From positions 768,001 to 832,000 of the forward strand of contig OY969763.1 in assembly GCA_963702845.1 (NCBI GenBank): a DNA stretch of 64,000 nt. The letters run 5' to 3'. Below, piece by piece: positions 15,755-47,444 of the stretch; the stretch's first letter is position 1; every line of letters starts with the position of its first letter. A model generated the notes under the pieces. It was given only the letters and a program-made list of their open reading frames with translations, searched no databases and was not told the DNA's origin. This DNA is from an uncultured Verrucomicrobiae bacterium. Its GTDB lineage: Bacteria > Verrucomicrobiota > Verrucomicrobiia > Limisphaerales > Palsa-1400. The position numbers and the translations under genes are program-made.

Positions 15755-18700
15755 ATCGCGTCCGCAGCGCTTCGTGTCGAGCGACGATGTCGTTTAAACT
15801 CTCGTGCAACGCCGGCACGTCGAGCGCTCCTCGCAAGCGCAATGCGAGCGGGATATTGTAAACGGACGATTTCATGTCCAGTTGCTGGATAAACCAAAGT
15901 CGTTGTTGCGGGAACGACAACGGCGCGGCTTTTGCCGTTGTCATCGGGCGCGATTGAATTTGGGTTGCGCCCGTCTCCGAGTTGTTTCGCCACGCCTGCA
16001 ACCGTCGGGGCTTCGAAAATCACGCGCAACGGGAGCTCAACCGAAAACGTTTTAGAAATGCGCGACATAATCTGCGTCGCGAGAAGCGAATGTCCACCGA
16101 GCTCGAAGAAATTTTCGGTCACACCAATTCGCTCCCGGCCCATGACGTCGCACCAGATTTTTGCGACCTTCTCTTCAACGTCGTTGCGTGGCGCGATAAA
16201 TTCAGCTGCTTGCGCTTGCGGCGCGGGAAGTTTCGCCCGATCAATTTTGCCATTGGTCGTCAGCGGCATTTCCGGCACGCGCACGAAGTAGCCTGGAACC
16301 ATGAACGGCGGCAATTTGTCAGCGACAAACTGCTGCAGTTCTTCAGTCGAACGCGCCTCGTCGGAAACGTAATAGGCCACAAGCGCCTTGCCGCCGGGCA
16401 TGTCAGAACGAGCGAGCACGACCGTGGCACTGATGTTCGGATGTTGTGCGAGCCGTCCTTCGATTTCACCGAGTTCGATGCGGAACCCGCGGATTTTTAC
16501 CTGATGATCCGCGCGGCCAACAAATTCCAACGTTCCATCGGACAAGTATCGAACAAGATCACCCGTGCGATAAAGCCGCCCTTGGCCAAACGGATTCGCG
16601 ACAAACTTCGCCCCAGTCGTTTCCGGTGCGTTCAAGTAACCACGCGCCAAACCATCGCCGCCCGTAAAAAGGTCGCCGACGGCTCCCTGTGGCACCGGTT
16701 GCATATGGCGATCGAGAACGTAAGCCGTGGTGTTGCTGACAGGCTTCCCGATCGGCACCGGCCGTTTTCCATCCCAGTCCTGCGGAATCAAATGGCACGC
16801 TGTGAACGTGGTATTTTCCGTCGGCCCATAGCCATTGATCAGTTTCGTTTTCGGTAATTGCTTCAGCGCCGTGAGCACATGCGAAACGGACAAAACATCG
16901 CCACCAGCCAGCAACTGACGGACACCTTTCAGAGAATCAATCTGATGCTCGACCATCTGATGGAACAGACCAGACGTGAGCCACAGTGTGGTAACGCCAG
17001 TTTGTTTGATGACCTTGGCCAAATCCTCAAGACTCGCTGCTTGCGGCGGGAAAATCACCAGCTTGCCGCCGTTCAGCAACGGTCCCCAAATCTCAAGAGT
17101 CGACGCATCAAAAGAAATCGGGGCAAATGCAAGGAACACGTCGTTCTCAGTCAGCGAAGCAAAATTCGTATTCTTCACCAATCGCACCACCGCCCGATGC
17201 GGCACCGCAACGCCTTTCGGTTCACCCGTTGAACCGGACGTGTACAACACGTACGCCAGACTTTCCGCAGTCGCTCTCGTATCCGATTTTGGATTTCCAA
17301 CCGCCGCCGTCGGATGCTCGTCTTCGAAACAGATAATCGGTGCGTTTGCCTCAATCTGGCGCACCTTCTCCAATAACTTCTTCTGTGTCAGTATCACGCG
17401 CGGTTTTGCATCGGCCACCATCTGAGCCACGCGCTCCTTCGGAAAATCCATATCCAACGGCACGTAAGCCCCACCAGCCTTGAGAATGGCGAGCACTCCA
17501 ATAATCAAATCCGGCGAACGCCCTGCGGAAATTCCAACCAACGAATCGGCGGTCACGCCGCAAGCGCGCAGATGATTCGCAATCGCGTTGGCGCGCTCGT
17601 TCAGTTCGCGATACGAAATGGTTTTCTCACCCGACACCAACGCCACCGCATCCGGGACGCGCCGAACCTGCTCTTCGAAAAGCTGATCAATCGTCGCGTC
17701 GCGAGGGTAATCGGTTTGCGTGCGATTTCGCTCAACCAGCAAATGGTGTCGCTCTTGCTCAGTCAAAATCGCCAGCTTCGAAACCTGCTCGTCAGGATTC
17801 GCCACGATACTTTCCAGTAACGTTTTGAAATGGCCGAGAATCCGTTCCGCATCGGCGCCATCGAAAATGTCCGTGTTAAACTCGAGATCACCGCAATAAC
17901 CCTCGTCGTTATCGGCGAGCGTCAGGATCAAATCGAATTTGGCCGTACCCGTTTCAAACGGCAGCGATTCCGCACGAATGTCCGCCAGCCGCAAAGGCGT
18001 GAGCGGCGTCGCCTGAAATTGAAACATCACCTGAAACAGCGGATGCAACGCGCCCTCGCGTTTCACACGCAAGGCGTGCGCAACCATGTCTAGTGGCACT
18101 TCCTGATTATTGAGCGCGCCCAGCACCGATTCTTTCGCTCGCGCCACCACCTGTCGAAAGGTTGGCTCGCCCGAGAAATCTGTCTTCAACGCAACGGAAT
18201 TTACAAAATAACCAATCAGCCGTTCCGTTTCCTGTCGAGTCCGACCGCCAATAGGCGCGCCGACGATGACGTTTTCTTGTCCCGAACATCGATGAAGCAA
18301 CGTCTGGAACGCAGCCGTCAGGAATGTAAACACAGTCACATTTTCAGCCTGGCTCAGTTTGCGAATCGATTCGCACAAAGTCGCTGGCAACCGCACTGGC
18401 ACACGCGCGCCGTTACCGGTCGGGACCGCCGGACGCGACCGACTACCGGGCAGTTCCAAAATCGGCAATTCACCCGCAAGCTGCTCCTTCCACCACGCGA
18501 GTTGCTGGTCGAGCGATCCATCGACCCGCTCGCGCTGCGTCACCGCATAATCCGCATACTGCGCCGGCAGCGCTGGAAGTTGCGGTTCACTCCCAGCTGC
18601 GAACGCCTTGTAAAACTCCTCAAGCTCACGATACAGCAGGAAAAACGACCAATGATCCGCCGCGATGTGATGCATCGTTATGAGCAACACATGCTCCTGC

Positions 18701-19191
18701 GCGCCGGCGCGGATTAATTTCGCGCGCATCATTAAATCTGTTCCCAGATCGAACGGCTTCCGCGCTTCCTGGCTGATCAACGTGCGAATGATTGCCTCGC
18801 GCTGTTGCGTTGGCAAAACCGACACGTCCTCCACCGGCACGTCCAACTGCGCCGACGGGCGAATATATTGCATCGGCTTACCGTCCGTGGCGGTGAAGCG
18901 CGTGCGCAAAATATCATGGCGATCAATCACCGCTTGCAAACTCCGTTGCAACGCGCCGACGTTAAGAGAACCCGCGAGTTTGAGCGCACTCGGGATGTTG
19001 TAAGCGGCGCTATTTGGCTGCAGTTGTTCCACAAACCAGAGGCTCTGCTGCGAGTAAGACAGCGGCGCGGATTCGCGACGGCTCGGCGTCGCGGCTGCGT
19101 TCTGTCTGGTCGCCAATGTTTGTAGTAACCGCTGTTCCAACAACGCCCGGCTCTCTGGACTCAGCAGGGAAATGTCGTTCTGCTCGGTCAT
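15700..19191 (-). CDS. NRPS module 1 (C-A-T) fragment
   Basis: PLSYSQQSLWF, MHHIAADHWS, YTSGSTGEPKG, NGYGPTE, YRTGDL, FFELGGHSLLA. Confidence 0.85.
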   Translation of the reverse strand: MTEQNDISLLSPESRALLEQRLLQTLATRQNAAATPSRRESAPLSYSQQSLWFVEQLQPNSAAYNIPSALKLAGSLNVGALQRSLQAVIDRHDILRTRFTATDGKPMQYIRPSAQLDVPVEDVSVLPTQQREAIIRTLISQEARKPFDLGTDLMMRAKLIRAGAQEHVLLITMHHIAADHWSFFLLYRELEEFYKAFAAGSEPQLPALPAQYADYAVTQRERVDGSLDQQLAWWKEQLAGELPILELPGSRSRPAVPTGNGARVPVRLPATLCESIRKLSQAENVTVFTFLTAAFQTLLHRCSGQENVIVGAPIGGRTRQETERLIGYFVNSVALKTDFSGEPTFRQVVARAKESVLGALNNQEVPLDMVAHALRVKREGALHPLFQVMFQFQATPLTPLRLADIRAESLPFETGTAKFDLILTLADNDEGYCGDLEFNTDIFDGADAERILGHFKTLLESIVANPDEQVSKLAILTEQERHHLLVERNRTQTDYPRDATIDQLFEEQVRRVPDAVALVSGEKTISYRELNERANAIANHLRACGVTADSLVGISAGRSPDLIIGVLAILKAGGAYVPLDMDFPKERVAQMVADAKPRVILTQKKLLEKVRQIEANAPIICFEDEHPTAAVGNPKSDTRATAESLAYVLYTSGSTGEPKGVAVPHRAVVRLVKNTNFASLTENDVFLAFAPISFDASTLEIWGPLLNGGKLVIFPPQAASLEDLAKVIKQTGVTTLWLTSGLFHQMVEHQIDSLKGVRQLLAGGDVLSVSHVLTALKQLPKTKLINGYGPTENTTFTACHLIPQDWDGKRPVPIGKPVSNTTAYVLDRHMQPVPQGAVGDLFTGGDGLARGYLNAPETTGAKFVANPFGQGRLYRTGDLVRYLSDGTLEFVGRADHQVKIRGFRIELGEIEGRLAQHPNISATVVLARSDMPGGKALVAYYVSDEARSTEELQQFVADKLPPFMVPGYFVRVPEMPLTTNGKIDRAKLPAPQAQAAEFIAPRNDVEEKVAKIWCDVMGRERIGVTENFFELGGHSLLATQIMSRISKTFSVELPLRVIFEAPTVAGVAKQLGDGRNPNSIAPDDNGKSRAVVVPATTTLVYPATGHEIVRLQYPARIALARSARRAGVAREFKRHRRSTRSAADAICCRERRTGAGRRWRADG

Positions 19192-32748: not shown

Positions 32749-33596
32749 CAGATTACGAGGTAAATGACGATGAACAACGCGTCGAGCAGAACGATGGCGA
32801 CAACGCACTTTGCCACCGCGCCGTTAGTCGCGCTCGAGACATCTTCTAGACGCAATGGTTGCGCCAGTCCTTCATAGGAGGTGACCACTGCAATCAGAAT
32901 TCCGAACCAGAGAGTCTTGAGTGCGAGCAAGACGAAGTCCTGCCAGATCAAACCACCGGCCAGTTGTTGCACGTATTGAGCGGGCGTTAGCGGCACATCT
33001 TGTAAAAATGCGAAGAGATAGCCGCTCATCAAAGTGATCAGGATTAAATAGACGGTCAGCGCAAAGACCGATAAGGCCAACCCGATGACGCGCGGAACAA
33101 CGAGGTAATGAATTGGATCAATGACCAAAGCCTCAAGCGCCTCAACTTCGTTTTGTGCGCGAGCGGTTCCGAGTTCCACGACGTTTGCTGTTCCCGAACG
33201 CGCCAGCACCAAAAGGGCCGCCAGCATGGGGCCGAGTTCGCGCACGACAACTGTATCCATCACCGTGCCGATATAATTTTCCGCACCGAACCGGGTCATC
33301 AGAAACACCGTTTGTCCGACGACCACCAGGCCAAGTGCGCACGCTAGAAAGCTGACCATTGGAAGGATTCCCAGGCCGGCTTTGGCAATTTGCGCGCGAA
33401 TCATCGGATGAATCACGTTGCGTGACCGGTCGAACTTCATAACCGTTACGCCCAGTGTAATAAGGAGAAATGCAACTAGGCCGTGGACCGTGCGAAAACC
33501 ACTGAGCAACTTGCGCCCGGCGATATCGACCATTGCGCCCGGTGAGAAATGGAAGCCTGGCGCAGCCGGCAAGTTCGCTGGTGGCGTTTGGCTCAT
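32748..33596 (-). CDS. MlaE family ABC permease
   Basis: VRELGPMLAALLVLARSG, ELG...EVEALE...IDPIHYLVVPR. Confidence 0.9.
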   Translation of the reverse strand: MSQTPPANLPAAPGFHFSPGAMVDIAGRKLLSGFRTVHGLVAFLLITLGVTVMKFDRSRNVIHPMIRAQIAKAGLGILPMVSFLACALGLVVVGQTVFLMTRFGAENYIGTVMDTVVVRELGPMLAALLVLARSGTANVVELGTARAQNEVEALEALVIDPIHYLVVPRVIGLALSVFALTVYLILITLMSGYLFAFLQDVPLTPAQYVQQLAGGLIWQDFVLLALKTLWFGILIAVVTSYEGLAQPLRLEDVSSATNGAVAKCVVAIVLLDALFIVIYLVI

Positions 33597-33719
33597 TGGC
33601 GCGATGTTGTAACAGATGCCGCGCGGCGGCAAGAGGGTTTGGACCGGTTGATTGGTAATCCGCATTGCGGAATGCGCGTGGTTGGCATAAGCTGCGCGCT
33701 CGTTTTTCTCAGAAATAAT

Positions 33720-34619
33720 ATGAGTATTCTTGTTGTTGGTTCGACCGCTCTGGATTCCATCCGCACGCCTAACGCGAAAAATCCGCGTTTGCTCGGTGGT
33801 TCTGCCAGTCATGCCGCCGTCGCGGCCAGTTTCTTCGCTCCGGTAAAGTTGGTGGGAATCGTTGGTGAAGATTTCCCGAAGCGCTACGTGTCGCTCTATA
33901 AGAAACACAAGATTGACCTCGAAGGTTTGCAGATCGCCGCCGGCAAAACGTTTCATTGGGCCGGCGAATACGAAGTGAACATGAACAACCGCCGCACGCT
34001 CGAAACTGAGCTCGGCGTTTTCGAAACGTTCACCCCGCGATTGCCCCAGAATTATCGGCAAAGCCAATTCGTGTTGCTCGCCAACATCGCGCCCTCGCTC
34101 CAGCACCATGTCTTGGACCAGATGAGCCGGCCGAAGCTGGTCGTCGCCGACACGATGGATCTATGGCTCAATATTGCGTTGCCCGACTTGTTGAAATTGC
34201 TGCGACGTGTCGATGGCTTCGTTCTCAATGAATCGGAAGCGCAACAGCTCACTCAGGAACACAACCTCGTCAAAGCCGCGCGCAAAATCCACAAGCTCGG
34301 ACCTAAATACGTTATCGTCAAAAAGGGCGAGCATGGCGCGATTCTTTCGGTCAATGGAACGTTGTTTGTCGCGCCGGCTTTTCCGCTGGAGCATGTGGTG
34401 GACCCCACTGGCGCCGGCGACTCGTTCGTCGGAGGCATGATGGGTTATCTCTCGACAGCGCGCGGCAGCGTTGATTCCAATCTGCGCCGCGCGATGATTC
34501 ACGGCAGTGTCGTGGCATCGTTCTGCTGCGAAGGATTCGGATTGATGGCGACCACCCGTGTGACCAAAGACAGGATTCAGAAGCGCGTAGCGGAGTTGGA
34601 AAAGCTGGTTCGATTCTAA
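33720..34619 (+). CDS. PfkB family carbohydrate/nucleoside kinase
   Basis: LGGSA, VKKGEHGA, VDPTGAGDSFVGG. Confidence 0.92.
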   Translation: MSILVVGSTALDSIRTPNAKNPRLLGGSASHAAVAASFFAPVKLVGIVGEDFPKRYVSLYKKHKIDLEGLQIAAGKTFHWAGEYEVNMNNRRTLETELGVFETFTPRLPQNYRQSQFVLLANIAPSLQHHVLDQMSRPKLVVADTMDLWLNIALPDLLKLLRRVDGFVLNESEAQQLTQEHNLVKAARKIHKLGPKYVIVKKGEHGAILSVNGTLFVAPAFPLEHVVDPTGAGDSFVGGMMGYLSTARGSVDSNLRRAMIHGSVVASFCCEGFGLMATTRVTKDRIQKRVAELEKLVRF

Positions 34620-34733
34620 CTACTGAACTGAACTGAACAACGCAGCGCAGATGACAGGCGCGCAACTGACTTTGTCTTTATAGGATGTTGGATAACCCGA
34701 AGCGCCAGTTAGCTCGATCTGGCTGGTTCGGCT

Positions 34734-35540
34734 TCACAGTTTCTCCCGATGCGGTTGGTGATCCCGATTCCAGCGGCGTAAGGCGTCGTCGCTGCTGTCT
34801 TCAAAAAGATATTGCAACGTCGGTGATTCAACGTGGCCATCGCAAAACACTACATCGGCTTTGCTTTGGTGGCGTGCAAACGTATTCCCTTCATTGTGAT
34901 GTTTTACATCAGATCAACTCGCCCGATCAATTACTGGGTTGCCGGTAAAGCCATCACCGATCGCAATCATGTCACCTGGATCAACTATTCCCGATTCGCC
35001 GACGGGAGGTGCAAGCGGGCCGTTTGCTGTAGCAGTTGTGCCGCCTAGGCCCAGCGCGCTATATTTTCCGGGGGAACTTAAGCCGACAAAGTTGTAGCCG
35101 TAAGAAAACCATGTCCTCAATGTATTTGGCGCAGGGTCGTTATTATACCAGCGGGCTGAAGGGCAGTTCCATACGCCATTTGTAAAAAAGGGCGTTTTAG
35201 ATTTTGGAACACCCAATTCTTCATAACTTAATGCTTCAGCCCAAGACCTGTAATGCTCCGAATACCCACTCCTTGAAATGTCTACATTTACGTACAAAGG
35301 GTAAAGATGGTTTTCTTGCACAAATCCATGCAAAGCGAGACCTAACTGCCGCACATTGTTGACGCATTGAATTTGCTGCGCTTTGCCTTTTGCTCGAGAG
35401 AACACGGCGAGTAATAGCGCTGCCAAAATCCCAATTATGGCAATAACGACTAAAAGTTCAATGAGCGTGAAGGCGGCACTACTCTGAAATTCTGGCCTTT
35501 GCTTTGTACCGGGTGATTGATGATCGGTAACCTTCGACAT
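34734..35540 (-). pseudogene. Prepilin-type N-terminal / H-X9-DG protein with one in-frame TGA
   Basis: [17 protein letters not shown] at 34914-34916; the same frame continues RHQSKADVVFCDGHVE...RRWNRDHQPH to a stop at 34734. Confidence 0.8.
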
Positions 35541-35717
35541 CTTTATCGCCTTCGCCCTAAAATTGCGCTGTCACCACTTCGATGTCAACGGGCTTCGAAC
35601 ATTCGTCGGCTTGTTCTGGGCCTTTGCCAGTTCACACCCTTCTCGCTCGGGCGATTGTTTATGTGCCGCCGCATGCGGTCAACGGAGCGGGACGAAACCA
35701 GCAGCGTCGCGAACTGA

Positions 35718-35754
35718 ACTGATAGGAAATTGCTTTTTGACGCTGGCGCGGTTA
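35718..35754 (+). repeat. 38-bp junction repeat, copy 1 (37 bp match)
   Basis: ACTGATAGGAAATTGCTTTTTGACGCTGGCGCGGTTA, preceded by ACTGA. Confidence 0.95.
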
Positions 35755-35755
35755 G

Positions 35756-36436
<681 letters not shown>

Positions 36437-36442
36437 ACTCCA

Positions 36443-39172
36443 TCAACGTAAATAAATCGCGCCGGTATTTGTCTTGCCCGTCCCGTCGTTGTTGCCAATA
36501 AAGGCGCCATACGCTGCGTTGCTGCTTTGCAAAACAACACCAACACCATTTCTAAGCCCTTTGATATTTGTCGGCTTGAAGTGGACGTTGAACAAACCCG
36601 TCGCTGTTATGACCGAACCTTGTAACGCGTTTGTCGGAGTATTCGACGTCTTCTGGAGGAGGTTATTGCCGCTGAACTGCGCATTGTAGGTCAATGGCAG
36701 ATTTAAACCCGAACCATCCGTGATCTGTAGCGTGCCCACGGCAACGGTCATCGCTGGCATGCTCGGCGCGTAAACTGAGCCGAAGACAGCAACAGTGTTC
36801 GTAAATCCGCCGAGATAGGTGGTCAAAGCAACGCCGCTCGGGTTCGCCGGTTTGATCCAGGTAAGTTGACCGGCGGGCGCGCCGCTGCTGAAATCGAGCC
36901 AGCCTTCTAACAGTCCCTGATGGTTATACAGGTCTACATACACCGGCCAGCGTCCGTCTTTCGAAATCGGCACCGTTTGGTTGATCGCACCCGACTCGGC
37001 GAGGGCTCCCGACAACGTCACCTTGCCAAGCGCATTGATGGACACCAGACCATAGCCGAAGCCACCCGGGGAACTTGCGGGCGCGTCGGCTGCTGGCGCA
37101 ATCGCCATCGTGTAACGAGCGAGTGCGTGTTGATTGTTTATATTGTAAATTCCGAAGTCGGCTAGCAATGGCGCGGACCATCCTTCGCTCGGACATGACA
37201 CCGTGCCGGTGATTTGTTTCGTTGCACCGGTCCAGTCCAAATACATAGCAACGTTCACAGGTGGTAAAACAACACCGCGTGCGATAGAAACTGTGCTGTT
37301 GCCCAAGGGATCAAACTGACCCTTCAATGGATATTTTGCGCCCGCTAAAAACAATCCGCCCGAATAAGTGCGGTTGAGTTGCACATTCAAATTGAACACG
37401 CCGCCCGCGCTTTGTTCTTTGATTAGCGGTTCACCCATTCCATTCGTCTCATAAAATAATCCGTTGCAGGTTCCCACGACGTCGGCAGAGTTGCCGAAGA
37501 AGAACATCCGGGTTGAAATGAGCGACGCGTCTCCAATATAGTCGAACGCCTGCACACTGAACGTATTCCAACCGGGCTGCAATGTGATCGGCGCGGTCCA
37601 TGTTATAAAGTTTTGTCCCAGTGGGGTCGTAACGCCATGTTGATCGCCGCCATTGAGTGAGTACAAAACCAATCCATCATTGCCCACGTTTGGATTCTGA
37701 TTGATATGGGCCGTCCCGGAAACAGTAATTGCCGGTGAGTTAAATACTTTGTTAGGCAGCGGTCCAACGATCGCGACACTGGGACGGTAGACGCCTGCGG
37801 GAGGACGGTATGGATTAACAACCACACTGTAAGTAGCAGTTCCGGTACAACCATTGGCATCCGTCGCAGTTACGGTGAATAAGTTGGTGCCGAGCGCGCA
37901 AGGAATACCGGTCCATGTCCCGTTACCGTGGAGCGTCAAGCCTGCGGGGATCGAACCGGCAGTCACTGAGAATGTATACGGCGGGACTCCGCTGCTGGCG
38001 CTAAGGTCGGCTGTCGGGTAAACTTCAGCCGTAGCATCACCGCCACCACACACTAAAACACTGCCATCATGAAGGAGCACTTGTCGGTGAAAACTGCGGG
38101 CGAAGGTCATAGGGCCAGTCGGTCGCCAGTTGTTCGATTCAGGATCGTAAAGTTCGGCGGTGTTGCGTTGGAATTGCCAGGCCCCGCCTGAAACCAGGAC
38201 CTTTCCACTGGGCAACAAGGTCGCTTGATGATCGACGTGTGTCCCAACCATCGGTCCAGTTTCTGTCCATGTGTCAGTGGTCGAGTCATAGACTTCCGCT
38301 CCGCCACCAGTGGCTAAAACTTTTCCATTCGGCAACAAGTTCAGTATTTGAAACAAAGCACCGGGCGTAGCGACTTCTGCGCGGGTTCGAGCTATAGGAT
38401 CATACATGTCTGCGAACGTTGGGCTCCATCGGCCACCTGCGAAAAAAACGTTTCCATTAGGCATTAACACCGCGCCGATGTCCCGCTGAGGACGGGTCAA
38501 GGAGCTCCAGAACTGCCACGTACCTGAGGATGGATCGTATACCTGTATGTCGGAAATCGGGAAATAGCCGGAATGTGGCGGCACGCCATTGAACACTTCA
38601 CCCCCTGCCACCATCACTCTTCCGTCTGATAGCAAGGTCGCCGCCGAAAAGGCGCAGCCTTCAATCAATGGATTAGTTGGCGTCCAACTGCCCGTCGCCG
38701 GATCAAAAAGTTCTGCGCTCGCCAGGTAGTGATCGTGCTCGTTGTTAGCGTCTAAATTGAAACCGCCCGCAACGAGGACTTTTCCATCCTGAAGCAATGT
38801 CGCGGTGTGATGAGCTCGTTTGGCAGACATTGGAGCAGTGGAACGCCATGTGCCGGTCGCCGGGTCATAGATCTCTGCACTAGACACGTAACGATCGACA
38901 ACGGGTATCGGCTGAACGTTGGAATATCCGCCCGTGACGAGAACCCTGCCATCGTTCAAGACAGTCGCAGTATGATTCACGCGGGGAATAGTCATTGAGC
39001 CAGTGACATTCCAAGCAGGGGTGGATTCACCCAAATTGTCACTGGGCAAAGTCGCCGGACTGATTGTGATCGTTGGACAGGCGTCCGCGTAAGACAACTC
39101 AGGAGCGCCGAGCGCAATGAGTAAAAGAGCAACCGCTGATCGCGTAGCGGTACCGAGAATGTTAGAATTCAT
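36443..39172 (-). CDS. Secreted Kelch/galactose-oxidase-like beta-propeller protein with Ig-like domains and conserved C-terminal region
   Basis: Repeats of R..HTATLL.DG.VLV.GG...AE.YDP.TGTW; He_PIG-like PYTFSVTAGSIPAGLTL. Confidence 0.85.
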   Translation of the reverse strand: MNSNILGTATRSAVALLLIALGAPELSYADACPTITISPATLPSDNLGESTPAWNVTGSMTIPRVNHTATVLNDGRVLVTGGYSNVQPIPVVDRYVSSAEIYDPATGTWRSTAPMSAKRAHHTATLLQDGKVLVAGGFNLDANNEHDHYLASAELFDPATGSWTPTNPLIEGCAFSAATLLSDGRVMVAGGEVFNGVPPHSGYFPISDIQVYDPSSGTWQFWSSLTRPQRDIGAVLMPNGNVFFAGGRWSPTFADMYDPIARTRAEVATPGALFQILNLLPNGKVLATGGGAEVYDSTTDTWTETGPMVGTHVDHQATLLPSGKVLVSGGAWQFQRNTAELYDPESNNWRPTGPMTFARSFHRQVLLHDGSVLVCGGGDATAEVYPTADLSASSGVPPYTFSVTAGSIPAGLTLHGNGTWTGIPCALGTNLFTVTATDANGCTGTATYSVVVNPYRPPAGVYRPSVAIVGPLPNKVFNSPAITVSGTAHINQNPNVGNDGLVLYSLNGGDQHGVTTPLGQNFITWTAPITLQPGWNTFSVQAFDYIGDASLISTRMFFFGNSADVVGTCNGLFYETNGMGEPLIKEQSAGGVFNLNVQLNRTYSGGLFLAGAKYPLKGQFDPLGNSTVSIARGVVLPPVNVAMYLDWTGATKQITGTVSCPSEGWSAPLLADFGIYNINNQHALARYTMAIAPAADAPASSPGGFGYGLVSINALGKVTLSGALAESGAINQTVPISKDGRWPVYVDLYNHQGLLEGWLDFSSGAPAGQLTWIKPANPSGVALTTYLGGFTNTVAVFGSVYAPSMPAMTVAVGTLQITDGSGLNLPLTYNAQFSGNNLLQKTSNTPTNALQGSVITATGLFNVHFKPTNIKGLRNGVGVVLQSSNAAYGAFIGNNDGTGKTNTGAIYLR

Positions 39173-39347
39173 AAGGAAAGCGATAAACGTACCGAAGCGT
39201 TGATTTGCATGACCCGTCCGACAAGATTCCCAACCCGTTCGTCATACGGCCGAGAGTCCACCTGCTGAAAAGTAATGTCAAGCATATGCGAGTGTGCAAT
39301 GTGGAAAAACAGGTGGGTCCGAAAAGATCGTAGGATATCGGCCGAAA

Positions 39348-39560
39348 CTATTCTGAAACCATGAGCCGGTAACCGATTCCAGCTTCGGTCATGAACATTT
39401 TTGGATGCGTTGGGTCCTCTTCCAGTTTGTCCCGCAGATGACCGAGGTAGACTCGCAAGTAATGCGTTTGCGTGACGTAATTGGGCCCCCACACCTCGCG
39501 CAGAATCTGCTGATGCGTCAACACCTTGCCGGCGTGCTGCACAAATAGTCGCAATAGCGA
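39348..39560 (-). pseudogene. kdpE: 3' fragment of KdpE-type response regulator (winged helix only)
   Basis: SLLRLFVQHAGKVLTHQQILREVWGP...THYLRVYLGHLRDKLEEDP...TEAGIGYRL; cut exactly at the ACTGAT stutter. Confidence 0.85.
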
Positions 39561-39575
39561 ACTGATACTGATAGG

Positions 39576-39613
39576 ACTGATAGGAAATTGCTTTTTGACG
39601 CTGGCGCGGTTAA
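39576..39613 (+). repeat. 38-bp junction repeat, copy 2
   Basis: Exact copy preceded by ACTGAT and ACTGATAGG. Confidence 0.95.
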
Positions 39614-39617
39614 GGCG

Positions 39618-40037
39618 TCACTTAGAATCCTCCAGTCGCCTCGCCCGCAATGTCTCGTCATCATGGTTGACGCTGGCTACCAACAGAAAGGGGCTGCGAC
39701 GACCTACAACACGGAATTCGAAACCAAAATTCTGGCCCGTGAATTTTACAAGAAATGCAGAATTGGAAGGAGAAAGCTGCCATGTGCCGGTGCCGGAAAC
39801 TTCTCCGATCGCACCGGAAGACGGCGACACGGGGAAATGCGCGACCATGAAGGTGTGGTCACCATTTAATCGGAGGTATTCCGTCGGCGGGCGAGTGTGG
39901 TGTACTGCGGGCACCCAAGTCCCAGCTAACGTTGATATGTCTGGCTGTTTGTCGGGATCAGCGTAGAGCAGGTGTCTCAAGACGGCGATCGCGAGCAGCG
40001 TAGCGCCAAAGATCAGAATCCTAACGTGCATTTTCAT
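39618..40037 (-). CDS. Hypothetical exported/membrane-anchored protein (cassette-like)
   Basis: N-terminal hydrophobic helix; LAGTW...L.LNGDHTF...GTW; GTTAGGC 21 bp before the start. Confidence 0.65.
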   Translation of the reverse strand: MKMHVRILIFGATLLAIAVLRHLLYADPDKQPDISTLAGTWVPAVHHTRPPTEYLRLNGDHTFMVAHFPVSPSSGAIGEVSGTGTWQLSPSNSAFLVKFTGQNFGFEFRVVGRRSPFLLVASVNHDDETLRARRLEDSK

Positions 40038-40421
40038 AATGGGTTCTATTTGATCGGCGCCTAACAGTTAATACACGACAACTGTTCGCAGATTTTTAAT
40101 AGGCGAACAAGGGTTTTTGAGGTTCAAGATTCAGATTTCCGACCTTGGAATCACCGAGAGCGGACGGCTGCGGCGTAGGAGCGTTGCGACAGCATCGCGA
40201 CGGAGCCGCTGCCGGACGCGGACGTCGTAAGCGTGCAGCACGGAAAAATGAGCAAAGTTCGCGTGGTTTCGCATAGGTTCGCTTTGCTTCTGTAGATGTG
40301 AATGCTGCGGTTTGCGAAACTGCGTGCGTGCCAGTCAATACGACGCATCCTGATTACGCCGCGAACCAAGCTGCATGGCTTCGCGCTCGCGATGTTTTGG
40401 CTGGCGAAGAACTGAACTGAT

Positions 40422-40459
40422 ACTGATAGGAAATTGCTTTTTGACGCTGGCGCGGTTAA
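40422..40459 (+). repeat. 38-bp junction repeat, copy 3
   Basis: Exact copy preceded by ACTGA and ACTGAT. Confidence 0.95.
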
Positions 40460-40674
40460 TTCGAAAGTTTCCCCGCTTTCCTGACGCGAAGCGGACTGAA
40501 GTCCGCGCTCCTTTGGTTCGAACGTTTTAAGCGCTGATCGGATGCGTAAATCTCTGAGCCGGACGTGCGCCTGATGCTCATTGCAAAAAACAGTGGTGGC
40601 TCGAGGGTTTCCTCGTTGGTGAGTTTGCCGCCCGGCAAGGGGCGACCAGACCACGCACGAAAGGATAACGGGCC

Positions 40675-41973
40675 ATGAATAGTAAACACACCCTCTTCCC
40701 GCTGGCCATCGGACTGGCGCTGAGTGTCACGATGCCTTCCATATTTGCTCAAGCCACCGCCCCTCCCACATCCACCGGGACGGCTTCCGTGGCGCCAGCG
40801 GAACCACCATCGGCAGGACATAAGCTTAGCACCGCCGAGCTTGATAAATTGGTTGCACCGATCGCGCTTTATCCTGACCCGCTCGTCGCAACGATCCTGC
40901 CGGCGTCCGCATACCCGCTGGAAATTGTCGATGCGGCGCGCTTTGTCAAAGATACGAACAATATCGCCAAGCTGGATGAACAACCTTGGGATAAAAACGT
41001 CAAAGAAGTCGCCCGCATTCCTAAAGTCCTCGACCAGTTGAACGAGAATATCAACTGGACCACCGCCCTGGGCGACGCGTTCGTCAAAGAACCGAAACAG
41101 ATCATGGAGGCGATCCAAACGATGCGCGACAAGGCAAAACAAACGGGCGCTCTCAAATCGACACCGCAGCAAACGGTCAACGTCGTCCAGCAGGCCGGCA
41201 CACAAGTCATCCAGATCGAACCGGCACAGCCGAACGTTGTGTATGTTCCGCAATACAATCCAACCGTAGTCTTCGCGGGCATGCCGGTTGCGTATCCCGG
41301 TTATTATTATCCACCCGCGGCGTATTATCCGGGAGCCGCTGCTGCGCTCTCGTTCGGTGCTGGCGTGGCAGTGGGGGCATGGGCCGGCAACAGCTGCAAC
41401 TGGCACGGCGGCACTGTGAATGTGAACAACTACAATAATTACGCTCACTACAACGGTGCCAATATTAACAATGCAAATATCAACAATGCTCGGATCAACA
41501 ACGCAAACATCAACTCGGCCAAGATCAATTCCGCCAACACTTCAACATGGCATGCGGACCAAAGCCGTCTGAACGCCTCCGGGGCAAGCGTGGCTACTGC
41601 CCAAAGCCGCGCAGACAGTGGTTGGGGCTCGAGCGCAAGCAAGGCTAATTGGTCGCAACAGGTCGACAACGCCAGCAAGCAATTCAGTGCGGAAAATAAA
41701 ACCTTGGAATCGCACCAGGGCGAGGCAGGACAATTTGGCAGTCACGGTTTTTCGGAAGCTTCCGGCGCCGATCGTTTTTCAGGAGCGCAATCCGCTGATC
41801 GATTCAGCGGCGCAGACAGGAGCGCCTTCGACAGTTCGCACGGTTCTTTCGCTGATCGCGACGCAAGCTTTCGAGGCGACATGAGTCGCGGTGGTTTCGG
41901 CGGCGGATTCCACGGAGGCGGCGGCTTTGGCGGGTTCCACGGAGGAGGCGGATTTCATGGAGGCCGCCGTTAA
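40675..41973 (+). CDS. DUF3300 domain protein
   Basis: LDKLVAPIALYPDPLV..ILPASAYPLEIV, LKSTPQQTV, VYVPQYNP; Gly-rich tail. Confidence 0.92.
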   Translation: MNSKHTLFPLAIGLALSVTMPSIFAQATAPPTSTGTASVAPAEPPSAGHKLSTAELDKLVAPIALYPDPLVATILPASAYPLEIVDAARFVKDTNNIAKLDEQPWDKNVKEVARIPKVLDQLNENINWTTALGDAFVKEPKQIMEAIQTMRDKAKQTGALKSTPQQTVNVVQQAGTQVIQIEPAQPNVVYVPQYNPTVVFAGMPVAYPGYYYPPAAYYPGAAAALSFGAGVAVGAWAGNSCNWHGGTVNVNNYNNYAHYNGANINNANINNARINNANINSAKINSANTSTWHADQSRLNASGASVATAQSRADSGWGSSASKANWSQQVDNASKQFSAENKTLESHQGEAGQFGSHGFSEASGADRFSGAQSADRFSGADRSAFDSSHGSFADRDASFRGDMSRGGFGGGFHGGGGFGGFHGGGGFHGGRR

Positions 41974-41988
41974 ACCTAAACCACGGAT

Positions 41989-42933
41989 ATGTCTATGAAC
42001 TCTATTTCTCGCTCTTTGCTTAAACAGGTATTGATCTTAGCCGCCGTGCTGTGCATCACGCCGATGATGTGCCTGAAGGCCGCAACCGCCGGTAAGACAT
42101 TCGCTTCGCCGGAAGATGCAGTGAAGGCATTTTCAAACGCAGTAAACAATAATGACACCAACGCTCTGATAGTCATCTTTGGTTCGGACTTCGACCAAAT
42201 TCAGTCTCCAAACCCGGCCAGGAGACAGGAAGATATGGCAACCATCGCCAAACGCCTGAAGGAAGGCACGCAACTCGAACCTTACGCCAGCAACCGGGTT
42301 GTGGTCGACATCGGCAAAGACCGTTGGCCGTTTGCCGTCCCCATCGTTCAGACAAACGGTTCGTGGCAATTCGACACCGACGCCGGCAAGGACGAACTCC
42401 AAAGCCGCCGCGTTGGCGGCAATGAACGGGACGCGCTTAGAAGTGTCCGGGCTTACGCAGTGGCCCAGCGCGTATACGCGAGCAAAGATCGAAACGGCGA
42501 TCAGGTGCCGGAATACGCCCAGAAATTCATCAGTTCGCCCGGCCAACAAGACGGACTCTATTGGTCAGCGGACGCCGGCGGTGAAACCAGTCCACTCGGT
42601 CCACTTTACGCCCAGGCCCAAAGCGCAGCGCAGGCGACCGCAAATGGAAACGGCTCGACCGGGGCACAACCGTTCTACGGTTACTATTTCAAGATTCTCG
42701 ATCGCCAGGGCAAGAACGCTCAAGGAGGCGCTAAAGATTACGTGAACAATGGCCACATGACCGATGGTTTCGCCCTCGTTGCCTGGCCTGCGGATTACGG
42801 CAAATCAGGCGTCATGACCTTCATCATCAATCAACAGGGCAAGGTTTATCAAAAGGACCTTGGGAAAAACACGGCGGACATCGCCCAAAAGATGCAGGCC
42901 TACGATCCGGATCGAAGTTGGAACGCGGACTGA
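41989..42933 (+). CDS. DUF2950 domain protein
   Basis: WPFAVPIV, FDTDAG, RRVGGNE, YAQKFISSPG..DGLYW, PFYGYYFKIL, FALVAWPADYG.SGVMTF; usual partner of DUF3300. Confidence 0.92.
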   Translation: MSMNSISRSLLKQVLILAAVLCITPMMCLKAATAGKTFASPEDAVKAFSNAVNNNDTNALIVIFGSDFDQIQSPNPARRQEDMATIAKRLKEGTQLEPYASNRVVVDIGKDRWPFAVPIVQTNGSWQFDTDAGKDELQSRRVGGNERDALRSVRAYAVAQRVYASKDRNGDQVPEYAQKFISSPGQQDGLYWSADAGGETSPLGPLYAQAQSAAQATANGNGSTGAQPFYGYYFKILDRQGKNAQGGAKDYVNNGHMTDGFALVAWPADYGKSGVMTFIINQQGKVYQKDLGKNTADIAQKMQAYDPDRSWNAD

Positions 42934-42959
42934 TACTGATAACTGATAGGAAATCGCTT

Positions 42960-42997
42960 ACTGATAGGAAATTGCTTTTTGACGCTGGCGCGGTTAA
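42960..42997 (+). repeat. 38-bp junction repeat, copy 4
   Basis: Exact copy preceded by ACTGAT, ACTGATA and ACTGATAGGAAATCGCTT. Confidence 0.95.
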
Positions 42998-43268
42998 GGG
43001 AGAATTGCTTTTCACAATGTCTCATTTTTTGAGGATGCTGCGCCCGTAGAAGCGTTCAGTCAAGTGACCTTGCGCATTCCGGTGCATCGTCTTCAGTCCT
43101 GGCAGTCCCGGCGGATGCCTTAGAATGCGCTAAATCCAAGGCCCGATGGCGCTCTCAACACTTGGCATTTACGACCGGCGCGCTATTATATTGTCACAAG
43201 CGCCGGCGACATTCTCTACCTTTAAGTCGGCGCGATGGTTGAGGCGAAACGAAAGGAAACCAATTGCG

Positions 43269-44039
43269 ATGAAAAAATTGCTGGTTCTGTTTGTGTTGTG
43301 GGCGGGACTTCCGGCCCATGTTGTAGCGGATCTCGTAACATACCGTTTTGCCGGCGTTGTGATTGGGCAAAACAATACTGGCGTCTTCACCGGCGGTCAC
43401 CCTTACACGCTCACGATTGTAATTAACACTGCCGCCCACGGCAATTCTACCGTGCCGGAAAGAACTGATTACACCAACGCGATCACATCCTCGTATTTCA
43501 ATTACGATTCAGGCAACTACGTCGCACAAGGAACGAATGGAGGCACAGTGAGTGTGGAAAACGATGATCGTGGTCTTTACGATCACTTTCTAATACTCGG
43601 ACTTCCTGGGTTTTCTTCACTCGCGGGGCAGCCACTTACTTCTTGCGAAATTCACCTCATCGACACCAATCACATTGTATTTTCGAACAATGACCTGCCG
43701 CAGATTCTGCCAGTTGACGCGTTTCAGCAGCGCTATTTTAACATTGGCTGGGGAATTGATTGGGACACCCGTGGACTGGACCTAAGCATTGACTCAATTA
43801 CAGTTATTCAGCGTCGACCAGCCATCACAAGTTGGACTCGGACGATCGATTCACTTGCGTTCAATATAGAGTTCGCCGGCCAATCCTGCACAAACTTGTT
43901 GGAACGATCGTTTGCAATCGGTAGTTCTGCACAATGGGAGGTTGTCAGTTCCTGTGTTGCATCTGGCGGAAACACGAATTGGACCGTGCCACTGCAGATG
44001 GACCAACCCTCAGTGTTTTATCGTGTGAAAGGCCAATGA
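43269..44039 (+). CDS. Secreted hypothetical protein with C-terminal FYRV-type domain
   Basis: Signal peptide MKKLLVLF...; ends LERS...W...VFYRVKGQ. Confidence 0.75.
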   Translation: MKKLLVLFVLWAGLPAHVVADLVTYRFAGVVIGQNNTGVFTGGHPYTLTIVINTAAHGNSTVPERTDYTNAITSSYFNYDSGNYVAQGTNGGTVSVENDDRGLYDHFLILGLPGFSSLAGQPLTSCEIHLIDTNHIVFSNNDLPQILPVDAFQQRYFNIGWGIDWDTRGLDLSIDSITVIQRRPAITSWTRTIDSLAFNIEFAGQSCTNLLERSFAIGSSAQWEVVSSCVASGGNTNWTVPLQMDQPSVFYRVKGQ

Positions 44040-44063
44040 ACTGTTCCCGCTGATAAGTCATGC

Positions 44064-44101
44064 TTAACCGCGCCAGCGTTAAAAAGCAATTTCCTATCAG
44101 T
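44064..44101 (-). repeat. 38-bp junction repeat, copy 5 (inverted, one mismatch, no stutter)
   Basis: TTAACCGCGCCAGCGTTAAAAAGCAATTTCCTATCAGT. Confidence 0.93.
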
Positions 44102-44790
44102 TGGTTTTGTGAACAAGTTTGCCTGCCAATGCCGACAAGCTACTCGTCGAAATATGTGTCAACGCTTTCTTGCTGTCGAAATTTGCAGCGGGATGCAGCG
44201 GCACGTATACCAGACGCAACTCCCCGCAACTGTTTGACCGACCGTCAGAAATTTTTTCAAAACCCTGTGATACGTTCGCCACATGAAAACACGAATTGCA
44301 CAGTTTGAACCGACACTGGTTTGCGACCACCCACAGCGCAACCGAAATCGTGTCAAAACTTTTTTGCATAGAAAAATGGCGCGTTGCGGCGTGGTAAGGC
44401 GTGTCAGTGCATGCAGGTGCATGATGGGAAACGGGCTTCGGAAAAATTCAGAAAAACATGTGATAGAAATGTGCGCATGAGCGAGAGCCATCAGTTTATC
44501 AATGAGCCGGCGAAGCCGGTGCCGCATCCGTTGTCGAATAAGCAGGCTGCCGATGTTCAACGCAAACGTGCCGCGCAGAAGAGAGTGCCAGTCGGCCAGT
44601 GTGAGCCATCTTCAGAAATCTGCCCAAATGTCGCTTTGTTTCGCTTTGTGTCGCGTTGCTTCGCTAGACGCCTGGCGACGAAACTCTCACCATATATGCA
44701 AATGACAGAGACATCGCGTTCGCCCAACTACCTGTCGCGCCGAAGTCAGACGCAGGCGGATCAACCCTCAACCCTCAACATGTTTTAACC

Positions 44791-45162
44791 ATGCATTCTA
44801 CAGACACAAAATCAAAGTTCCTCGAGTTCCGCGGCAAAGGCTGGAGCCTTGCCCGCATCGCAAAACAAATCGATGTCAGCGTCCGCACCTTGGCCGACTG
44901 GAACCAGCAACACCGCCAGGAAATACGCACGCTCCGCGCCATCGATATCGAAGCTCTTCAGGAAAAGTTTCTCGCCACCCACGAGCAGGAGCTCAGTTCT
45001 CTCACCGCCCAACTCCAGCGCATCGAGCAAGCGATCGGCGACAGCAAACTCCAATTCGTCGAAACTAAAGACTTATTCCGACTGGCTGCCGTGACCCGCG
45101 CCGAAATCCGCAAAGTCATCATACCCACGGAGCCGGATGATAAATCGCATGCACAAAACTAA
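44791..45162 (+). CDS. Helix-turn-helix plus coiled-coil protein
   Basis: FRGKGWSLARIAKQIDVSVRTLADW (HTH) followed by heptad-rich helix. Confidence 0.8.
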   Translation: MHSTDTKSKFLEFRGKGWSLARIAKQIDVSVRTLADWNQQHRQEIRTLRAIDIEALQEKFLATHEQELSSLTAQLQRIEQAIGDSKLQFVETKDLFRLAAVTRAEIRKVIIPTEPDDKSHAQN

Positions 45163-45164
45163 AA

Positions 45165-45830
45165 TTGCATCGTTTCTGCATCATTTTTGCATCATTTCCC
45201 AAATGGAGGCCGTTACAAAATCCAGCGGCGGTCACGTTTGGTCACGTTCGGTCATGTTCAGTCATCTTTGGTCACGTCTACCATCGGCTCGCCTCCTTCC
45301 TGTCGGGCCAAAGCGCCCCGCGAAGGCAGACGCGCCCTTCGAGCGAAATGCTTTACCGGTCAAAATTCGGTAAAGAAACGGTAAAGAAACGGTAAAGTTT
45401 TACCCCTTGTAAAATGAACACGGTTCAAACGAAAAAACGTACAGAAAATGTACAGAAAGGTTCAGTTTTCGGTCCACGCCTGAAAAACCGGGAAAAAGGT
45501 AACGGGAGGTAATCAGAAGTAATCGGAGGTAATCTCATTATGCAATCTCTGTCACGTTTGGTCATCTTTGGTCACGTCTGGTCATCGGAGGTAATCCCAA
45601 TGCACCACCCGTCGTCGCCATTCATGCAAAACTGCACCATTTCTGCCTCGTTTCTGCCTCATCTTTTTTGCGCACCGGATGTTCCGGTCGGTCAAATTCG
45701 GTAAAGAAACGGTAAAGAAACGTAAAGTTTTTTAAATGTGCCGCCGTGCCGTCGGACGTTCCGGTCCTGAATTGATCAGATCTCGGCAAAAAACAAAATC
45801 GACTGACTTTCAGTGACCTTTACGGAAATT
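45165..45830. repeat. Mosaic of 10-11-bp tandem repeat blocks
   Basis: TGCATCATTT x3, GGTCACGTTT x5, CGGTAAAGAAA x4, GTACAGAAA x2, AGGTAATCGG x4, then second copies of three of these blocks. Confidence 0.85.
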
Positions 45831-45980
45831 GTTTGCTGCCTGTCACCAAATGTAGCCTGTTCGGCGTTCCGGAGAATTCAATAAAATTGTAGCTTCCCTT
45901 TTGGCGAATCGATACAATAAGCTACTTTTCACAACGAAAAATAAAAACTCCCGGCATGCGGTCGGGAATGCAATATTAAT

Positions 45981-47444
45981 ATGGCACTGAGTCCAAAACT
46001 GGGGCCCGAACAAGCGGCAGCCAACATGGCTGACATTGCCCCCCGCTTTACACCACAAGAAGCTGTTATCGAAGCGAATCGTTGTCTGTTTTGTTTTGAT
46101 GCGCCCTGCATCCAGGCATGCCCGACCGGCATCGATATCCCGAGCTTCATTCAAAAAATTGCCAACGGTAACCTGACGGGTTCCGCGCGAACAATTTTAA
46201 GCGCCAACATTCTCGGCGCCAGTTGCGCGCGGGTTTGCCCCACGTCCGTCCTTTGCGAAGGCGCGTGCGTCGTGCTCGATCGCGAAGGCAAAGCTGTCCA
46301 GATCGGACGATTGCAGCGTTACTCGACGGATCACGTTTACGACAACAAAATCCAGGTCCTCAAGCCTGCCGCGAAAAAGTCTGGCAAAAAAGTTGCCGTG
46401 CTCGGCGGTGGTCCTGCCGGCCTTGGTTGCGCGGCGGAGTTGGCTCAACTCGGCCACGACGTCACTGTTTTCGAAAAGAAACCGCAAGCCGGGGGTCTCA
46501 ACACCTACGGCATCGCTTATTACAAGATGCCGCCGCAGGTGAGCCTTGAAGAAGTCGAGCTGGTCAAGAGCCTCGGAGTTCAATTCAAATTCGGCGTCGA
46601 AATCGGCAAAGACATTCAGGTCGCCGACCTCGAAAAGCAATTCGACGCGATTTTCGTAGGCCTCGGCCTTGGCCGCGGTCATCAGATGAATATTCCCGGC
46701 GAGAATTTGCCGGAAGTTATTCAGGCCCTCGATTTCATCGAAAAACTTCACACCACGCCGTTGCACAAAGTGCCGGTCGGCGCGCGTGTCGCTGTTATCG
46801 GCGGCGGCAACACCGCCATCGACGCGGTGACCCAGGCCAAGCGCCTCGGTGCCGAAAAAGCGATGCTCATTTATCGCCGCACTCAGGCTGAAATGTCGGC
46901 TTATGATTTCGAGCAGGACCTCGCCAAAACTGATGGCGCTGAATTCGTTTTCAATGCTGCACCCATCGAAGTTATCGCCGATTGCAACGGGCACGTGGCC
47001 GGCCTGAAACTCGCCCGCACGCAGTTGGTTAACGGCAAAGCCGAAATTATTCCCGGCCAGGAATGGGTCGAGCCCGTCGACATGGTTATCAAAGCGATTG
47101 GCGAACCTAAACAAGTCGAACTGCTCAAGCGCCTCTTTCCGAAAATCGAACTCGATAAGCGCGGCGCGATTGTTTACGACCGCGCAACCGGCGCAACGAA
47201 TCTCCCGAAAGTTTTTGCTGGTGGCGATTGCGCCAACGGTGGACGCGAAGTTGTTAATGCTGTCGGCGAAGGCAAGAAAGCCGCGCGCGGCATGCACGCG
47301 ATGTTCGTAAACCAGAAGGTTGTCGGCCCGGTTCAGCAATCTCGACTGGGTGTGAAGTCAGCGCCGGTGGGTTCTGGTTTGGAAAATCCGATCCGTGTGC
47401 CCGAACTGGAAAAAGAATACGCGAAGCAAGCGGCCGCACACTAA
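45981..47444 (+). CDS. preT: Dihydropyrimidine dehydrogenase, NAD(P)/FAD subunit (GltD-like)
   Basis: EANRCLFCFDAPCIQACP, CARVCP, GGGPAG, GGGNTAID; adjacent to preA. Confidence 0.85.
   Translation: MALSPKLGPEQAAANMADIAPRFTPQEAVIEANRCLFCFDAPCIQACPTGIDIPSFIQKIANGNLTGSARTILSANILGASCARVCPTSVLCEGACVVLDREGKAVQIGRLQRYSTDHVYDNKIQVLKPAAKKSGKKVAVLGGGPAGLGCAAELAQLGHDVTVFEKKPQAGGLNTYGIAYYKMPPQVSLEEVELVKSLGVQFKFGVEIGKDIQVADLEKQFDAIFVGLGLGRGHQMNIPGENLPEVIQALDFIEKLHTTPLHKVPVGARVAVIGGGNTAIDAVTQAKRLGAEKAMLIYRRTQAEMSAYDFEQDLAKTDGAEFVFNAAPIEVIADCNGHVAGLKLARTQLVNGKAEIIPGQEWVEPVDMVIKAIGEPKQVELLKRLFPKIELDKRGAIVYDRATGATNLPKVFAGGDCANGGREVVNAVGEGKKAARGMHAMFVNQKVVGPVQQSRLGVKSAPVGSGLENPIRVPELEKEYAKQAAAH

Follow-up and report, generated by a model that had tools for sequence, protein, structure and literature searches.

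Prefix ladders at short oriIS-type modules in a verrucomicrobial genomic island point to one-ended transposition of the IS91/ISCR kind

Introduction

Why should a short repeat be preceded, copy after copy, by truncated versions of its own beginning? This question is raised by a 9.5-kb island within a stretch of 64,000 nucleotides (nt), here called the window (C1:768001-832000), from the genome of an uncultured Verrucomicrobiae bacterium (designated G000; 6.03 Mb, 89.8% complete). The island is punctuated by a repeat of 37-38 base pairs (bp) whose plus-strand copies begin at positions 35718, 39576, 40422 and 42960, and which is present in inverted orientation at 44064-44101. An earlier note on this DNA had described series of fragments of the 5' end of the repeat ahead of its direct copies (we refer to each series as a ladder and to its members as rungs), and had offered two origins for them, namely telomerase-like synthesis or template jumping by a reverse transcriptase (RT), or repeated abortive events at a single site.

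Sequence comparison identifies the repeat as a non-autonomous derivative of an HUH transposon of the IS91/ISCR type, namely as its start end, oriIS. We consider it probable (roughly 0.8) that ladders and cargo array were built by a transposase of this type acting in trans, which would repeatedly cut and rejoin the DNA at the resident oriIS junction. How IS91/ISCR elements choose start, stop and target is still only partly known (PMC13181058).

Results

The ladders of the window consist of prefixes of the repeat

All fragments described in the earlier note were found in place (ACT followed by three times ACTGA from 34619, and the rungs starting at 35713, 39561, 40411 and 42929); likewise, the ladder at 34619 has no full copy behind it and the inverted copy at 44064 has no rung. 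The rungs in the window are prefixes of the repeat and measure 3-18 nt. With up to two mismatches permitted, the 13-mer that starts the repeat occurs seven times in the window, compared with a mean of 0.66 in shuffled sequence. A rung of at least 5 nt precedes 5 of the 21 copies present in the source genome, where 0.0 were expected. Suffix fragments of 8, 10 or 12 nt were absent from the island outside the full copies.

Rungs are short tandem duplications, a property that could also stem from polymerase slippage or from an error of sequencing or assembly. Positions 35541-35802 are covered, with one mismatch and no gap, by a 262-nt contig of a public run that may be the source sample; since this contig bridges the junction at 35713, that junction is not an assembly error. 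It is the only junction of the window bridged by a public contig among the matches listed, and the public runs contained at most 9% of the sequence words, which gives no reading on habitat or island coverage. Slippage or artefact is nonetheless hardly credible, because the units range from 3 to 58 nt, share one anchoring base and never occur on the other side of the module, and because ladders are found again in numerous assemblies as well as in records of complete plasmids.

The copy at 42960 extends for at least 142 nt into a longer parent sequence and matches G000:6007074-6007215 at 95.8%. What has been called a full copy is therefore itself a prefix, and the proposal that a master locus be sought was borne out by longer copies elsewhere in the source genome. 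The 18-nt rung at 42942 and the adjacent copy differ at position 14 (C in the rung, T in the copy), and the C allele is also present in the G000 copies at 6007284 and 6015672. The ladder at 34619 is the sole module-free triple rung among 19 genome matches to a two-rung pattern. These 19 matches, which include those at modules, fall within the control range of 0-70; double-rung orphans are thus at control level, and only the triple rung at 34619 was counted. It may represent the footprint of an oriIS unit that was lost or excised.

According to the earlier note, rungs never become shorter towards the copy. This holds in the window, where the order may be due to chance, and fails outside it: elsewhere in G000 one ladder rises and one falls, and 4 of the 8 multi-rung ladders found outside the window contain a decrease towards the copy; the ladder of plasmid pMSHV has 45 and then 11 nt. 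Comparison with copies from other genomes yielded prefixes only, without a general order of lengths.

The repeat corresponds to the start end of IS91/ISCR-type elements

When one genome per species was scanned for exact matches, at least 134 stretches with the end were recovered; among the matches listed, these derive from Verrucomicrobiota, Lentisphaerae, Nitrospirota and others. An IS91-family transposase was one of the recurring neighbour proteins, with the end placed just behind its gene. In 12 of 18 transposase loci, several of them near-identical and hence not independent, the end lies 210-294 nt 3' of the gene; a looser pattern located it in three more, and the remaining three loci stop too early. 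The neighbouring transposases match PF04986 and PF14319, and the cut-off of NF033538, the NCBIfam model for IS91, was passed by two of three proteins (L124 and L179), with the partial protein of L106 staying below it. The subtype found in the window sits behind transposase sequence in loci L218, L239 and L345, and the long copy at 42960 aligns with these transposase-linked ends over about 110 nt. Moreover, the first 14 nt of the repeat agree with the annotated end of ISPps1 at 13 of 14 positions.

In the parent enzymes the HUH motif could be aligned, and they possess a single catalytic tyrosine like that of ISPps1. The first tyrosine position is occupied by K, R, Q or S in eight in-frame relatives, so that a pair of tyrosines four residues apart is absent (5 of the 15 rows, being misaligned or not in frame, were left out). 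These transposases are 27-32% identical to that of ISPps1 and group with the enzymes of plasmid pIAE1.

G000 contains about 24 recognisable ends and additional decayed ones. At two loci, a 210-nt prefix is followed by a second, variant end, which yields 248-bp double-oriIS units. Both units lie in an island between nuoI and nuoH (G000:6002300-6015750; L001 3320-16750) that also holds a terminase-like gene and a collagen/peptidase S74 gene. The open reading frames (ORFs) beside the two units were considered as cognate transposases and proved to be nuo and cargo genes. No more than about 10 nt separates the oriIS end from the start of cargo ORFs in this island, and outward promoters are therefore possible, if putative.

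We also considered whether the repeats are copies of an integron attI that an integrase had recombined into secondary sites. G000 does contain cassette arrays with attC-like sites, some modules lie inside them, and GT is read at the joint when the end is reversed. However, no integron integrase scored over the cut-off in G000 (best TIGR02249 score 85.9 bits, cut-off 265), only 7 of 189 joints show the core GTTRRRY (2.2 expected), and the sequence is tied to IS91-family transposases; on these three grounds the attI identity was dropped as very improbable. The long tyrosine recombinases of G000 adjoin tRNA/tmRNA-like sequence, as read by eye. One cassette array (G000:174500-185500; L003 2500-13500) has attC-like sites and junction sequences of which several recur; two oriIS modules interrupt it.

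Ladders recur in other genomes and on plasmids

In unselected other genomes, a rung of at least 5 nt precedes 13 of 154 copies, against 0.2 expected. Where the inner end of the module is defined, 12 of 112 modules carry a prefix rung of that size and none of the 112 a suffix repeat, in agreement with the fixed start, variable ends and prefix-only pattern first described for the window. The complete plasmid pIAE1 has prefix ladders before 3 of its 11 parsed ends (22; 13+28; 37 nt); they directly precede intact IS91-family elements, and their rungs match the adjacent copy exactly. In pMSHV (127241-127314; L367), an ISPps1-type end with a 45+11-nt prefix ladder stands before an intact element, and pAKD34 (L371) has the same ISPps1-type ladder without a full copy behind it, like the one at 34619. 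A ladder in L335 stacks three different end variants. Of the ideas put forward in the earlier note, that of repeated abortive events at one site is supported.

Two 5'-end variants each of the ISPps1 end and the pIAE1 end coexist. In L124 (3727-3801) and L194 (2933-3032) a prefix (18 nt in L124) is fused to the inner end of an inverted module, which creates a small palindrome-like unit. The pIAE1 plasmid of Trichlorobacter lovleyi (NZ_CP058410.1, about 162000-253000; L357/L358) carries an array of about 90 kb composed of identical IS91-family copies in the same orientation, whose passengers are pieces of reductive dehalogenase, cobalamin, tat, selA and gmk/nadD genes, with shared passengers nested; our literature search found no paper on this array. 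A blastn search of plasmids with the long end found no match. In viral contigs, 85 matches to a loose ladder pattern were obtained; only three of them had a loosely matching end, and these were left out of account.

The same recurrence bears on the synthesis from a template end that the earlier note had placed first. Template jumping by an RT, telomerase-like extension or re-priming by a primase on the end of an RNA or DNA template would fit a fixed start with variable ends. Yet G000 has no match to PF00078 (RT; control matched in 3 of 14) or PF09250 (primase-polymerase, controls positive), neither enzyme is present among the 55 window ORFs scanned, and Rfam yielded no match in the window from 33500 to 46500, the part with the island. 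Since the sequence is that of an IS91-family oriIS and the same ladders stand at intact IS91-family elements, we attach next to no probability to this origin.

Inner stops, orientation and flanks of the modules

Of 117 copies with an anchor, 80 end at a G-rich site (mostly after 37-58 nt, depending on the subtype) and 37 continue into the parent sequence; the classes were assigned automatically, and 136 of all 253 copies are without the G-rich anchor. A second inner motif 33 nt downstream was considered as the determinant of the inner stop and rejected, since subtypes lacking it stop at the same G-rich site. One end (L337 84; G002:C431) lacks the segment between the two inner motifs, which are 33 nt apart. 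Among pairs of neighbouring copies, 43 of 49 in other genomes (some of these pairs are related) and 9 of 12 in G000 point the same way.

No target duplication was detected in 57 modules, and overlap lengths equalled those of a shuffled control, a comparison limited by the fact that the flanks of a module are not the original halves of a target. The choice of base before the end is strongly biased: it is an A in 104 of 189 cases and a C in 7 (50.7 expected); AC stands there once (9.5 expected) and GTT 16 times (2.7 expected). Where paralogs exist, the two flanks of a module match different loci right up to the joint.

A transposase acting at resident oriIS copies would account for the ladders

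The IS91 model has the transposase open a nick at oriIS, and replication across the element is then primed from the 3' end set free (PMC5714925). Transferred to the window, this model would make the plus strand the transferred strand and the fixed start the site of the nick; the transposase would hold the 5' end, and all transferred strands would begin at the same base. Termination would be loose: strands may run for 3-18 nt (rungs), stop at a favoured inner position (modules of 37-58 nt), reach 142-210 nt into the element, or extend kilobases into neighbouring DNA (module plus passenger). If the nick at a resident oriIS were the favoured acceptor, short and long units would stack head to tail. 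A module may first land in some DNA and later carry the DNA behind it elsewhere, which would leave it with two unrelated flanks. At 34619, the orphan ladder would be what remains at a site from which the oriIS unit later disappeared. Rungs, modules, prefixes of 142-210 nt and module-plus-passenger units thus form one series with a common start, and a loosely stopping transposase is the simplest cause for it; the preference for the resident oriIS and the making of rungs of a few bases are parts of the scheme that we infer.

From where the rungs are copied is less certain. At about even odds, we prefer the view that strands from any copy end prematurely and are inserted at the resident nick to one of purely local copying. 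In a local process, the same enzyme would nick, the host polymerase would extend the donor 3' end by a few bases and the transposase would reseal, each rung being a copy of the adjacent end. Such a process needs no free oligonucleotide, the nick can be closed again and synthesis is primed from the 3'-OH (PMC5714925), and the exact rungs of pIAE1 agree with it. Against it stand rungs with letters of another subtype (at 42942 and in L117, L169, L335 and L040), the prefix joined to an inverted module in L124, and the absence of two-base rungs, AC being almost missing before the end; we therefore judge local copying to be the less likely course, with perhaps a quarter of the weight. Of the rungs of at least 6 nt, 5 of 18 differ from the adjacent copy, mostly by letters found in other copies, and such mixed-allele rungs together with the chosen 3' bases favour enzyme-cut strands brought in from any copy.

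Rungs that differ from their present neighbour, and rungs at the ends of passengers, would also arise if replication from an upstream module stopped a few bases past the nick of the next oriIS, so that a remobilised unit would bear a prefix at its tail, with one rung gained in each round. ISCR28 captures DNA between two sequential oriIS (PMC12772301), which lends this late termination some plausibility. It is nevertheless improbable, since most ends are free of rungs (a rung is present in 37 of 248) and what precedes the ladder at 34619 is a resident chromosomal gene and not a moved passenger.

Several observations weigh against strand insertion by an IS91/ISCR-type transposase as set out above. 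The ordered rungs of the window are not explained by it. Thirteen of the 18 rungs of at least 6 nt match the adjacent copy, a number that local copying fits equally well, and the mismatches of the others could be later mutations. The 38-nt module folds at only -2.6 kcal/mol, which is no strong subterminal hairpin, and a fixed tetranucleotide target is absent (the commonest 4-mer occurs in 8 of 189 flanks, with a weak A/T and GTT bias). Empty sites were found for none of 15 tested junctions (self matches only), and because no simple lone-module insertion came to light, the first step of capture is presumed. Finally, neither profiles nor tblastn found an IS91-family transposase in G000. NF033538 had no match there, with controls matching in G544 and G027, nor had PF14319 or four transposase relatives used in tblastn; the search with PF04986 was likewise negative, a weak result given its silent control. 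Relatives of the transposase are present in 45 of 151 genomes of the order, G000 not among them, and two genomes of the same genus (73% and 67% complete) have none. The enzyme is thus absent, lost or unassembled in G000, where its activity is putative; the array would be left over from earlier activity, or would have formed in trans or within a donor.

The island and its passengers

The features of the island are compiled in Table 1. Its left border is the stop codon of the pfkB gene. In the same-genus genome G001, the stop of the pfkB ortholog is followed by another gene without a ladder, and as the neighbours of pfkB differ between G001 and the second genome of the genus (G002), pairing does not demonstrate the insertion of the island. 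The pieces between the repeats are mutually unrelated and often cut in the middle of genes, as judged by Pfam and comparison with paralogs. In passenger 2, paralog similarity starts or stops at the joints, mid-gene; passenger 3 includes just the initial codons of a gene, the paralog of which is a frame of 544 codons; and in passenger 4 the DUF2950 gene is truncated near its end, the first rung supplying its stop codon.

Table 1. Features of the pfkB-side island, in window coordinates
Feature	Position	Strand	Content and remarks
pfkB-family kinase gene	33549..34619	+	Pfam PF00294; stop codon overlaps first ladder base; left border of island
Orphan ladder, 3+5+5+5 nt	34619..34636	+	without oriIS module
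Passenger 1	34637..35712		begins in dispersed repeat; prepilin-type N-methylation ORF 34914-35540 (-)
Rung, 5 nt	35713..35717	+	
oriIS module, 37 nt	35718..35754	+	
Passenger 2	35755..39560		3' part of alpha-L-arabinofuranosidase gene; kelch-repeat gene 36443-39172 (-); response regulator stub (Pfam)
Response regulator C-terminal stub	39348-39560	-	within passenger 2
Ladder, 6+9 nt	39561..39575	+	
oriIS module, 38 nt	39576..39613	+	
Passenger 3	39614..40410		small ORF 39618-40037 (-); 43-copy dispersed repeat 40057-40124; truncated gene start
Ladder, 5+6 nt	40411..40421	+	
oriIS module, 38 nt	40422..40459	+	
Passenger 4	40460..42928	+	DUF3300 and DUF2950 genes (Pfam)
Ladder, 6+7+18 nt	42929..42959	+	
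Long oriIS prefix, at least 142 nt	42960..43101	+	module and parent continuation with second copy of inner motif
Passenger 5	43102..44063	+	single 297-aa ORF without Pfam family or paralog
Inverted oriIS module	44064..44101	-	one mismatch; without rung; right border of array

Other repeats are present in and beside the island. The one at 40057-40124 is an imperfect inverted repeat of about 60 bp with 43 genome matches; it belongs to a family separate from the oriIS module, whose members usually lie just ahead of where a small ORF on the other strand starts. A second dispersed repeat (34637-34680; nine genome matches) is often found about 100 nt from members of this family. To the right of the inverted module, positions 44345-45732 hold a multi-copy unit with a 123-amino-acid (aa) ORF and runs of 10-11-bp repeats that has many paralogs in the genome. 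Elsewhere in the window, positions 11190-19191 comprise a nonribosomal peptide synthetase cluster (condensation, adenylation, thioesterase, phosphopantetheinyl transferase), the second module of which is split over two frames near 14057-14136.

Discussion

If the interpretation is right, the ladders are a readable trace of IS91/ISCR chemistry: the 5' end is constant, the 3' ends are selected, and the origin of the element itself serves as a hot spot. The 38-nt modules contain no genes and escape annotation, yet they mark joints of capture in many Verrucomicrobiota and in other phyla. The same signature is present in the catabolic plasmids pMSHV, pAKD34 and pIAE1, the last with its array of reductive dehalogenase and cobalamin genes, and it provides a means to spot rolling-circle gene capture in genomes that now lack a transposase.

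A further-reaching view, which we hold tentatively and at slightly less than even odds, is that a single-tyrosine clade of the IS91/ISCR type runs an integron-like gene capture without an integrase. Modules of 37-58 nt would seed themselves, capture the DNA behind them, be added site-specifically at a resident oriIS and grow into ordered arrays, as in the window and, with intact transposase, in pIAE1; the ladders would be a base-resolution record of aborted rounds. In that case, these oriIS modules would rank among the smallest non-autonomous mobile DNAs. In integron cassette arrays, too, short sites in direct orientation separate unrelated cargo that is apparently added at one site. Unlike integrons, the system described here has no IntI and no GTTRRRY core, its cargo is cut mid-gene and its site is an oriIS.

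One-ended transposition of IS91 elements, with the miniatures of IS801 as an example, was already known. Our literature search found no description of oriIS prefix ladders, of modules of 37-58 nt or of module arrays in the parts of the articles available, and classic papers or supplements may mention such duplications.

The closest likeness is to the IS801 miniatures of Pseudomonas syringae (PMC3189936, PMC6354349), which are continuous fragments from oriIS with an early stop at preferred inner sites, are moved by the transposase in trans and can carry adjacent DNA, the last two properties being those that we propose here. Right-end fragments of 229, 360 and 679 nt anchored at oriIS make up 26% of IS801 insertions (PMC3189936), and the miniatures, like our module, are without the subterminal palindrome of terIS. 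They are longer (229-679 nt) than the modules of 37-58 nt and the rungs of 3-18 nt reported here, they end at a consensus tetranucleotide, unlike the modules, and neither stacking at a resident oriIS nor cargo arrays are described for them in the parts seen.

With IS91, IS801 and IS1294 (PMC13181058, PMC5714925), the parent element shares the HUH transposase (NF033538, PF04986, PF14319), the oriIS behind the gene, the lack of terminal inverted repeats and of target duplication, and variable termination; one-ended transposition without target duplication is characteristic of the IS91 family (PMC13181058 and preprint). IS91 proper differs by its tetranucleotide target, its strong hairpin and its Y249/Y253 pair, none of which is seen in the window system, and an autonomous IS91 element has its transposase in the element or genome, which G000 does not. 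ISPps1 and the ISCR elements are nearer, in the terminal nucleotides (13 of 14 for ISPps1), the single-tyrosine motif, the varied flanks and the prefix ladders at ISPps1-type ends. The "sandwich" capture of ISCR28 uses two sequential oriIS (PMC12772301), whereas here 38-nt modules form multi-unit arrays. Helitrons (PMC5876387) likewise combine HUH rolling-circle transposition with head-to-tail arrays and capture of gene fragments, but are eukaryotic, helicase-fused and have different ends. The system of the window is thus neither an integron nor the product of an RT; it works like the one-ended transposition of IS91/ISCR elements and derives from a member of this broad family.

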